A DNA stretch of 64,000 nt from assembly GCA_963693365.1 (NCBI GenBank), contig CAVNZM010000009.1, positions 1,676,231 to 1,740,230 of the forward strand, written 5' to 3'. The position numbers were made by a program, and so were the translations under genes. The notes beneath the pieces were generated by a model. That model was not told where the DNA came from, ran no database searches, and was given only the letters and a program-made list of their open reading frames with translations. The stretch is from Amoebidium appalachense (lineage: Eukaryota > Protista > Ichthyosporea). Shown piece by piece: positions 30,901-33,900 of the stretch; positions within the stretch are counted from its first letter, which is position 1, and each line of letters begins with the position of its first letter.

Positions 30901-33900
30901 CCCCCTCCCTCCCTCCTTCCCATCCCTCCCCCCTTCCCCATCCCCTCCGGCCAGCCGCAGCAGCACCACCACCACCACCACCACCCAACCAATCTCTACC
31001 CCCACCCCCCAAAAATTGCAACAACAAATGCCTCCCCTCCCCCCCCCCCCCCCCCCCCTCCTCAACCCCCCTATGTGTGTGTGTGTGTATGTTGTGCTGG
31101 GTTGCACATACCGGTCCCCCCCCCCTTCCTCAACCCCCCTATGTGTGTGTGTGTGTATGTTGTGCTGGGTTGCACATACCGGTGTCTACTTTTCTTCTTA
31201 CTGTTTTTCTCTCCACACACTTCATCTGTCCACTTCTGCATACCCCCTTTCATAGCTATAGACACACTTCACACATTGCGTTACGCGCACGCATGCACAC
31301 ACCGCTCTGTTGGCGACAGCTCCCTTGGAACCCATGCGGCATGTTACCCGCCGGCGTAAAATAACTCGGACTATCGGTTTGGCTTTTTTCAAGCCCAAAG
31401 CAATGGGTGATACCATATTTCCGGCTGACATCCGGGGACATAGCTTTCCGTTCGAAGACGATAAAGTTCCGCCCTAGTAAGCGTGTTACTACCCTGCGGC
31501 GTGGGTCAAATATCATATTTTCCCCTCTGATTGCGAATTCTGCGGCCTTCGGGACTTGATTCTTTTCAGCTGGTGTAGTATGTTAGCCAGGGAAGCATCG
31601 ACTTAGGTATCGACGGGGGAGCTTTCTAGAAGCCCCGTCTCCTGAGTTCCTATCTATATTTTTCTTGCTTCTGCTTACTGCTGCAACTTTAACCCCCGGC
31701 CTTTCCCACTGCCCTTGCCTGCATAAGCAACCCTGCTCGTCTCTGATCAAGACGGGTGACCTACCCATGTTCAAGTGAAACAGTATCTGAGTTGGGTTTC
31801 GTTAACGAGGTGAATAGGTCGAAACTCGGGTACTGTGGATGGCGTGGGCCCCCCTGAGGATGGGCTCTGCTTATTTTGCATACTCTTTATGTATGGCTTG
31901 CATTCTGCATCGTGTTATCCGTTTGTTCTTGTGTACTTCGTACTTTTTGACAGATTCAAACCCCCCTCCCCCCGCCACCTGCGGTCTTTTCGTCTTCTTC
32001 CCACCGCAGAGGTGGAGCCACGTGTGAGCCAGAGTTTAGGCGACATTCAGCAGCGAGTTCAAGTGGAGCCCAATGCATCGGCCCCTCAGAAGATTGCAGC
32101 CTCTGTTGAAGAATTCAAGCAGAAATGGGGTGATCGTCTGGAAATGGCAAGTGAAATGCCCCGAGTTTTTGATGATGTTGCCTGGTTACTGCTTTCAATT
32201 TAATGACTTTCAGTTATTCGTTACTTGCCTAATAGCACATAAAGCAGGCATCTATGTATGTATGTGTGTGTGCATGTGTGTGTTTACAAATATTTATATG
32301 GCATCCCGTTAAAGGAGGAGAGGGGGGGGGGGGGGGGGGGGGGATAAGACTTAGTAAACGTTTATGATATGGTGAGGTGTCCGCGACAGCTTCAGGTGAA
32401 TGTGTGGAACTGCAAAAGGAGTTTGTTTACTTCTGGGTTAGTTGACAGTTTCATGTTTCTCTGTGTGCTATTATGTGTAATTTTTGCTGTGTGGCACTGG
32501 AGGAGGAGCGATTTTTTTGGGGTGGGTGGACGGGTGGATTTTTCTTTTTCTTTTCTTTTCTTTTTTTTTCTTTCTTTTTTTTTTTGGTGGTGGTGGTGGC
32601 GGGAGGGGGGGGGGGAAGGGGGGGGGGAGGAAGGATGCTAGCCATGAATTGTGGGCCGCCAGAGAGCATGCAGGTGTTGTTGACGGTGGAGGTAAGGGGT
32701 AGCATTTCCGACCGTGCTGTTTATGACCTTTTGGGTTCGGCTGTCATCCACCCCCCCCCTCCCCCCCCCCCCAAAAAAAAAAAAGAAAAAAAAAAGAAAG
32801 AAAAGGAAATAAAGAAAGAAAGGGAAAACAGTGTGTTAGTGGATGTTGAAGGAGGACTTATTATGCTTATACACATGTAACAGTTCACGTTCACGGCATG
32901 TGCACATGCAGGTTTGACACTCCTGCATAAAGACTCATAGACACACAAGCACACGCACACACACACACACACACTCACACACTCACACTCACACTCACAC
33001 TCACACTCACACACTCACACACACACTCACACACACACTCACACACACACACACGAAAACACACGAAAACACCCTCCCCCCCCCCCCCCCCCCCCCCCCC
33101 CCCACACACACAGTAACCCATCCACCTACCCACACACCCAACCCTTCCCCACCTTCTCCCCCCCCCCCCCCCCCTCCCCCTCCTACCCCACTCCAACCCA
33201 CCCACCCTCCCTCTCCCCCCCCCCCCCCCCCCCCCCCCTTTCCCCCTTCCCACCCACCCACACACACACGAACACACACACACACACACACACAGGTTCT
33301 CGTCCATGTTCCCTGGCCCGGAAACGCCGTGATCATCGACACCCCAGGCTTCACTGAGTCTTGTGCAGCCAAGGAACAATCTGGTCTGCTCCAGTCCATG
33401 CGCACATGTGACGTGTTGGTGATGGGAGCAATGAGGGGCCTAGGCAAGGGGGCACTTCAGCCCTATGTGGACCGTAGTGCCTGCAGTGTGCAGTATGCAT
33501 CGGCAAACCACTATGTGGTTGTGCAGACATTCCTGTCGGACCCGTCTGTGGTACGTCCTACCCCATTCTGTGTGTGTGCACTGTATTGTGTATTTTAAAG
33601 TTAAGAGTAAGAAAATACCCCCCCCCCCCCCCCCCCCTCCCTTTTTTGGTCTCCTTGTTCTCAGCATGCCCCCCCCTCCCCCCCCTCCACCCACCCACCC
33701 CATCCCGCACCCAAACCCATATCCCTGCCTCTCTGCATCCCTCCTTCACTCATGCATACATGTCCGTACGTGCACACACCCTTCCGCACACACACCTGCA
33801 CACGAAGACACACACATACACAAACACACTCACACTCACACGTCTATCGCCGCTCCCCCCCCCCCCCCCCCCCCCCCCCCCCCCCCCCCCCCCACCATCT

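Follow-up and report, generated by a model that had tools for sequence, protein, structure and literature searches.

The analyzed window comprises 64,000 nucleotides (nt) of the ichthyosporean Amoebidium appalachense (assembly GCA_963693365.1, contig CAVNZM010000009.1, positions 1,676,231 to 1,740,230 of the forward strand). Between two C-runs, it contains a non-coding repeat of ~820 nt (copy B; 31140..31960, + strand, 5' limit approximate) that is located in an intron upstream of a probable host exon (32010-32146, with CAG acceptor and GC-type donor). The repeat carries an RNA motif with a complete hammerhead ribozyme core in the strand order 10.x, S, G, 2.x-CUGAnGA; we regard it as probable that this motif adopts the self-cleaving fold modeled below, with a four-way junction at the A9/G10.1 step, in what is likely a non-autonomous Penelope-like retroelement of the Naiad/Chlamys type.

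The motif is also present in copy A (4290-4011, - strand; 95% identical to B by BLAST), which is 5'-truncated at an internal C-run, and in a tandem array of 3.9 units of 449 nt (D1-D4; 56722..58476, + strand; 77-80% identical over the motif by BLAST) that resides in an intron of the gene for the large subunit of ribonucleotide reductase (the first exon of this gene has its best named single-domain match in Sphaeroforma arctica, 83% identity). The comparison of complete copies comprised these six (B, A, D1-D4), which represent only two subfamilies; B and D have in common only the ribozyme and the last 34 nt.

Hammerhead core, strand order and covariation

The established hammerhead numbering fits copy B throughout, with all elements on the + strand. 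Block S (31780..31796) consists of the 16.x strand of stem III, the NUH triplet GUU (G16.2-U16.1-U17, 31791-93) and the 1.x strand of stem I (GGG); block G (31815..31836) consists of the 11.x strand, G12-A13-A14-A15.1 (31821-24) and the 15.x strand of stem III; the segment 31841..31860 consists of the 3' strand of helix I, the 2.x strand (31851-53) and the core word C3-U4-G5-A6-G7-G8-A9 (31854-60). The blocks are arranged in the order S, G, C (31792, 31821, 31854) as in type-SGC hammerheads. Stem I (31794-96/31851-53), stem II (the crossing helix, 31758-63/31815-20, all Watson-Crick) and stem III (P4, 31780-92/31824-36) close on the core with 3, 6 and 13 pairs, respectively, and do so at the correct core positions (G10.1-C11.1, A15.1-U16.1, C15.2-G16.2). 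By analogy with this numbering, cleavage of copy B is predicted after GUU (31793/31794), and that of the D units after 56924, 57372, 57821 and 58270. The core (C3-U4-G5-A6-N7-G8-A9 with G12-A13-A14-A15.1) is complete in B, D1-D4 and a shorter copy C (core word CUGAUGA), and is altered by A14G in copy A.

Block C appears to be split in copy B: the favored 10.x strand (31758-63, G10.1 at 31758) is located ~100 nt upstream of A9. Helix I (P3, 31764-71/31841-48; 8 pairs, 7-8 across the copies, with one double change from U.G to A-U) continues directly from this upstream strand and connects stems I and II only in combination with the upstream stem II; because this joining helix of the SGC type runs on directly from the upstream stem II strand, block C was judged to be broken between A9 and G10.1. 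After A9 and a following U, the chain pairs back (P0 and P1 3' strands; together 31861..31874) to sequence just 5' of P2, first through P0 (CCC, 31731-33/31862-64; pair probability 0.36, unchanged in 6/6 copies) and then through P1 (31723-29/31868-74; pair probabilities of 0.94-1.0 for 6/7 pairs). The 5' strands of both (31723..31733) would thereby provide a closing helix that keeps A9 beside G10.1. Hairpin P2 (31735-41/31751-57; one U.G replaced by U-A in copy A) ends immediately 5' of G10.1; in the simplest model it would meet P0/P1 in a four-way junction located at the A9/G10.1 step. Between stems I and II, the linker contains a perfect 10-nt palindrome (31799..31808) that may fold into a small inner hairpin (pair probability ~0.4); a different perfect 10-nt palindrome occupies this place in D1-D4, and either palindrome could let two units dimerise.

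A sequence-only reading of the stretch had listed helices P1 to P4, the crossing pairing, the conserved islands and the 3' end with its C-run, and all of them were found in place. It had further stated that it could not fold the hammerhead words into a canonical hammerhead; this is correct for types I, II and III (block orders CGS, GSC and SCG: 0 descriptor matches in the window), but the complete core in swapped strand order, together with stem I and the GUU site, had escaped it. Its term "undescribed structural motif" accordingly applies to the wiring, which appears to be the only new feature, and not to the core, the class appearing to be that of the hammerhead. Two sequence comparisons of that reading need correction: its P4 pair GTCTGAGTT/AACTCAGAC mixes two tandem units, no single unit possessing both strands, and the crossing strand GACCCT that it had assigned to the diverged unit occurs in D3/D4 only (D1/D2 read GACCCA).

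As that reading had left to be checked, Rfam gave no match at gathering score. The only informative weak match was to Hammerhead_1 (14.2 bits against a gathering score of 34, E 2.7), which aligned 31758-31831 to model positions 14-38 with the crossing helix used as stem II; other weak matches, at E up to 10, were to mir-981 (E 0.47) and Acido-Lenti-1 (E 7.8). The descriptor, which covers all six block orders and the split form, matched in the window only copy B (plus copy A if A14G is allowed), either as the split form or as type-SGC with a 2-nt insert; 3742 shuffles yielded 0.002 split matches and 0.008 SGC matches with 2-nt insert per window. Likewise, the pattern of the two conserved islands had 7 matches in the window and none in 100 shuffles. 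As control loci served 142 sites from collection scans (16 + 120 viral, 6 metagenomic) that bear the same two islands by chance, 22 of the collection loci reading as chance matches in prokaryote-like DNA; the collection scan of prokaryote genomes gave 0. The strict descriptor was matched by 0/116 distinct control sites versus 2/6 distinct window sites, and with one mismatch allowed by 4/116 versus 5/6.

In the six complete copies, 96.2% of 234 cells were paired, compared to 27-46% in slid controls. Five pairs are altered on both sides between the subfamilies (stem II contributes two, stems I and III and helix I one apiece; slid controls 0), and the covariation claimed by the sequence-only reading is to this extent present; derived from two subfamilies, it represents few independent events and is suggestive only. 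Read evidence consisted of the assembled contigs of 8 of the 24 listed runs (X9 and X13 being RNA by guess), in which depth is summed and is not a copy number, and which give neither strand, end nor level. The contigs of run X6 show T>C at 31762 (4.8%) and A>G at 31816 (4.3%), the two sides of one stem II pair (unphased); the common changes at 31765, 31842, 31728 and 31743 (helix I, P1, P2) preserve pairing, and G>C at 31848 (5%) breaks the end pair of helix I.

The carrier repeat and its proposed copying

Copy B ends with a conserved 3' terminus (31933..31966, + strand) composed of a small hairpin, a 10-nt spacer, ATTCAAA and the target C-run (GTACTTCGTAC-N10-ATTCAAA followed by the C-run); in relaxed form this terminal motif has 8 matches in the window, every one in a family copy. 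The strand around the predicted cut (31789-31799) is complementary to copy B's own 3' terminus (31958-31968), which is not so in the D units. Copy C (1577..1654, - strand; 15.7 bits, E 0.009) belongs to a third subfamily; it retains blocks G and C as well as the start of P0 but has no P2, 10.x strand or block S, which suggests an internal deletion. An old 3' stub (30585..30691, + strand) begins at a C-run ahead of a decayed block C, and a 3'-end stub (1014..1082, - strand) lies between C-runs; the covariance model revealed no further complete copy in the window. C-runs are present on both sides of 5/5 window insertions, such runs making up ~3% of bases. Long homopolymers of C, G, A and T, as well as (CA)n tracts, crowd the window introns. 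Copies B, C and D have the same orientation as their apparent host genes, which a strand bias of the C-runs may explain. A 68-nt direct duplication at 31048-31183 takes in the C-run together with ~44 nt from the start of copy B, and resembles a short partial tandem at the 5' junction.

In the DNA run X3, the summed contig depth amounted to 299,903-1,215,392 over 31400-31950 and to 99.6 from 31980 onward; in X6 it rose from 11,492 at 31150 to 885,592 near 31890 and stopped at the 3' end. This depth profile marks the repeat as a very abundant family whose copies have a single fixed 3' end and lose their 5' parts by degrees. In X10 and X13, contigs extend ~16-17 letters beyond 31150, and 83 contigs begin at 31849 behind a C-run. 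At the predicted cut (31794) there is no step in depth and, among the contig rows listed, no cluster of loose ends (contigs give no ends). A few joints run from the 3' end back into the body as tandems would, contigs being unable to tell a circle from a tandem. Both subfamilies were also found in contigs of runs labelled organisms D and E, and one contig of X9 covers 32009-32147 alone, as a spliced transcript of the downstream exon would.

The repeat itself offers no informative reading frame (the longest ATG frame on the + strand of copy B encodes 72 amino acids); two frames 5' of the motif, considered as remnants of a reverse transcriptase (RT), were rejected, having no Pfam match. Terminal inverted repeats as in DNA transposons, another check suggested at the outset, are absent: of the 21 inverted pairs in B and the 7 in a D unit, none links one end to the other.

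In the proposed mechanism, RNA arising by read-through of host introns or tandem copies would be cut after GUU, and cuts in neighboring copies would free RNA of unit length, which re-ligation may close into a circle. In trans, a Penelope-like RT/endonuclease would nick a poly(C)/poly(G) tract, whose G-rich 3' end would pair with the oligo-C of the element and prime copying from the ATTCAAA end; early stops would result in 5'-truncated copies, and running on in head-to-tail arrays. Priming by oligo-C on a nicked poly(G) strand, as put forward by the sequence-only reading, would agree with the C-runs at the junctions of 5/5 insertions. Since the genomic copies cross the predicted cut and terminate 167 nt downstream of it, the template must be uncut, re-ligated or circular RNA. 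The model of circular templates put forward for Penelope hammerheads (PMC4209133) would predict fixed ends at C-runs, head-to-tail arrays and truncation that shows no step at the cut, all of which are seen.

The ends of 24 Naiad/Chlamys consensus sequences (supplement of PMC8557442; record names taken from the header order) were compared by eye. Two octopus Naiad records, found by motif search, share this split arrangement while differing in their stem sequences. In them, a hairpin runs up to G10.1, the upstream stem II has 6 pairs, helix I is present, the site is GUA and stem I has 6 pairs; then come CUGAUGA and UGG, which pairs back beside the hairpin and forms a short helix after A9. Among 12 further Naiad ends, five (1_Nbra, 3_Nbra, Hcon, Hpol, Smim) can be read as complete type-CSG hammerheads that include helix I. 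According to PMC8557442, the clade contains no canonical hammerheads apart from two Chlamys subclades, and eight cases are termed 'HHR_half_core'; four of these eight are among the hammerhead fits obtained here, one of them being an octopus split record. A type-CSG hammerhead that is opened at A9/G10.1 and has its first half transferred to the end gives the order of copy B; therefore, tandem duplication could have produced its layout. Five of six (C)n-targeting Chlamys records end in AACCCCC, and the stretch 31693-31719 of copy B loosely resembles a pyrimidine-rich 3' stretch of Chlamys-1_cRei and two relatives, which may be chance. The description given by the sequence-only reading, that of a non-autonomous, 5'-truncated and tandem-forming repeat at C-runs with a structured RNA, is thus borne out, and its link to the Naiad/Chlamys clade gains support.

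The remainder of the window contains two tandem copia retrotransposons with long terminal repeats (LTRs) at 13582-25345 (99.9% identical, with shared LTRs and frameshift differences), which represent either very recent activity or an assembly repeat, and beside them a further short LTR-bounded repeat (23224-25345). Degenerate, partly palindromic 11-nt tandem repeats lie at 9320-9435 and 10261-10292. A sigma-70 scan of the window, irrelevant to a eukaryote, gave 0.

Competing pairings and alternative explanations

A number of observations speak against a self-cleaving fold in a Penelope-like carrier. The nested fold is only modestly stable (z -1.39 for B and -2.32 for D3; -0.07 for the reverse strand, the hammerhead words sitting on the + strand), and helix I has a pair probability of at most 0.06 in the nested ensemble of B. 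If the 5' strand of helix I pairs instead with CUGAGGAUGGG, the duplex rivals helix I itself (-12.0 versus -10.1 kcal/mol in B; -10.0 versus -10.6 kcal/mol in D3). Stem I consists of only 3 G-C pairs in copies B and A, and 5/6 complete copies have a flaw near the core (A14G in A; a C.C mismatch at pair 4 of stem III in D1/D2; C.C at pair 2 of stem I in D3/D4, which have an A.G or A.A mismatch further out in P4). The number of double-change pairs did not exceed the shuffle control (83/500), few independent events limit the covariation as such, and the descriptor thresholds were chosen after the sequence had been seen. No Penelope-type RT motif was present in the six frames of the window, nor was there any RT reading frame flanked by the motif as envisaged by the sequence-only reading; the only RT found in the window is that of a copia element. 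No comparable hammerhead fit was visible in the last 420-520 nt shown for 7/12 Naiad and 10/10 Chlamys ends, the C-run target being a Chlamys trait. Finally, the D units form two pairs (4-5 differences within, 7-14 between); this two-by-two pattern needs two templates or a later duplication, and a single circular template would not give it alone. The evidence for structure is the covariation and the fit to the hammerhead core, not folding energy.

Copy B could alternatively be an ordinary type-SGC hammerhead with a 2-nt (UG) insert after A9, in which the downstream strand 31863-68 pairs with 11.x as stem II and the upstream strand 31758-63 acts as an inhibitory switch. The descriptor accepts copy B in this form, the downstream strand is invariant (4 pairs in B, 6 in D and C), and PMC10085705 records insertions of 1-2 nt beside CUGAnGA. 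We nevertheless consider this version unlikely: the downstream duplex is weaker by 3.4-4.5 kcal/mol in all three copies tested (-2.2 versus -6.7 kcal/mol in B; -5.1 versus -8.5 and -5.1 versus -8.7 kcal/mol in D1 and D3), helix I extends from the upstream and not from the downstream strand, and the octopus Naiads offer 2 pairs downstream versus 6 upstream (by eye). Because the stem II formed with the upstream strand is the stronger one and covaries, block C was judged not to be continuous (10.x within 0-2 nt of A9), the weak 4-pair option with 2-nt insert notwithstanding. Of similarly low probability, if marginally the more credible, is a hammerhead-derived fold that cuts very slowly or not at all and is maintained for recognition or packaging by the RT, or is just carried along in recently amplified copies. 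The flawed copies and the 3-bp stem I fit such a fold, as do the copies that run across the predicted cut to an end 167 nt beyond it, and a strong competing duplex (31764-31775 with 31854-31864; -12.0 and -10.0 kcal/mol) buries CUGAGGA in both subfamilies. This alternative duplex was not seen in the two octopus Naiad records; if it forms, it could hold sense-oriented intronic copies mostly off. Against the loss of cutting, every core position is retained between subfamilies that are only 77-80% alike and in distant Naiads, C3U (~2%) is the only core change among the X6 variants listed at >=1%, and decay of single genomic copies is to be expected.

That the hammerhead words arose by chance within an unrelated structured RNA (snoRNA-like, with a K-loop) appears very improbable: the weak nested z-scores would agree with it, and CUGA and UGAUGA also resemble box D and C words, but no Rfam family was recovered, the chance rates in shuffles and control sites are low, and three stems close on the correct core positions. 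The hammerhead could, on the other hand, be carried by something other than a Penelope-like element, either a mobile element using an RT of the long interspersed nuclear element (LINE) type or a rolling-circle DNA element (Helitron/Replitron type). With either, a single fixed end, a hairpin at the terminus and tandem copies would arise as well; the small hairpin ~10 nt from the 3' end, the failure to find a partner protein in the window and target duplications that are unreadable inside C-runs are compatible with them. The repeat has neither a poly(A) tail nor a tRNA head, and is without the short terminal direct repeats or RG target described for Replitron-1 (PMC10288648, as far as used); by analogy, a self-cleaving RNA in common with Naiad tails and a (C)n target in common with Chlamys point to the Penelope-like carrier, so that we assign a small probability to these other vehicles.

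Comparison with known hammerheads and Penelope-like elements

Taken further, we lean, by little more than an even chance, to the view that copy B represents a seventh natural hammerhead wiring, which the chain enters and leaves at the A9/G10.1 step and in which two additional helices make a four-way junction on the core, that this ribozyme is active, and that together with type-CSG it is what was 'missing' in the Naiad/Chlamys clade, with hosts as far apart as octopus and a unicellular holozoan and an amplification here in a poly(C)-targeting, retrozyme-like family. If true, this would break the rule stated in PMC10085705 that the three hammerhead blocks cannot be interrupted, an assumption that restricts the class to six permutations; non-circularly permuted hammerheads, until now found in environmental sequence only, would have a clear job in eukaryotic nuclear genomes; and the A9/G10.1 step would be a natural port for adding domains to engineered hammerheads. 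A possible reason why Naiad/Chlamys elements seemed devoid of hammerheads is that standard descriptors are blind to these strand orders, several 'HHR_half_core' cases reading as complete. In the searched literature (subscription papers lay outside the search), neither permuted Naiad hammerheads nor a hammerhead with its core opened at A9/G10.1 were described, and the passages used of PMC13725137, PMC10162972, PMC3088659, PMC13159263 and the bioRxiv preprint 10.64898/2026.07.22.740005 contain none of this wiring.

The closest described form is type-SGC (HRIMA-1 and variants; PMC10085705), which has the order S, G, CUGAnGA and all core nucleotides in common with copy B; in both, stems I-III cross as pseudoknots and a helix joins the distal sides of stems I and II. 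In contrast, type-SGC has a continuous block C, whereas copy B is judged to have its 10.x strand ~100 nt on the 5' side of A9, with two helices in the gap; the linker between stems I and II measures ~3 nt in type-SGC and ~18 nt here, where it includes the palindrome. According to the same source, type-SGC is found in metatranscriptomes only, no supported form coming from genomes of known organisms. Type-CSG shows the same cyclic strand order as copy B but has a whole block C, and is reported from two metagenome sequences only, not from retroelements (PMC10085705). In Penelope hammerheads, an extra base is often present between positions 9 and 10.1 (PMC4209133).

Concerning the carrier, the window family resembles Naiad/Chlamys elements in 5' truncation, head-to-tail copies and non-autonomous derivatives, and Chlamys in particular in its target ((C)n here, (C)n or (CA)n in Chlamys) and AACCCCC-type 3' ends (PMC8557442). 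These elements carry, or depend on, an RT reading frame with N-terminal GIY-YIG, CxC and an IFD-bearing RT, and the window repeat has no open reading frame; their known hosts are animals, green plants and slime molds, the tables of PMC8557442 listing no ichthyosporean, and the present family suggests Naiad/Chlamys-type activity in ichthyosporean-like protists. Non-LTR retrozymes and pseudo-LTR (pLTR) hammerheads likewise form non-coding tandem units with one hammerhead each, and the former are thought to be Penelope derivatives copied from circular RNA (PMC4209133; bioRxiv 10.64898/2026.07.22.740005). GUU sites such as that of copy B are common in the Hydra-clade table. In retrozymes, every tandem unit bears a type I hammerhead whose stem III is short and palindromic; the D units are tandem, but their hammerhead is not of type I, stem III comprises 7-13 bp and the strand order is swapped, and the window family occurs mostly as single truncated copies inserted at C-runs.

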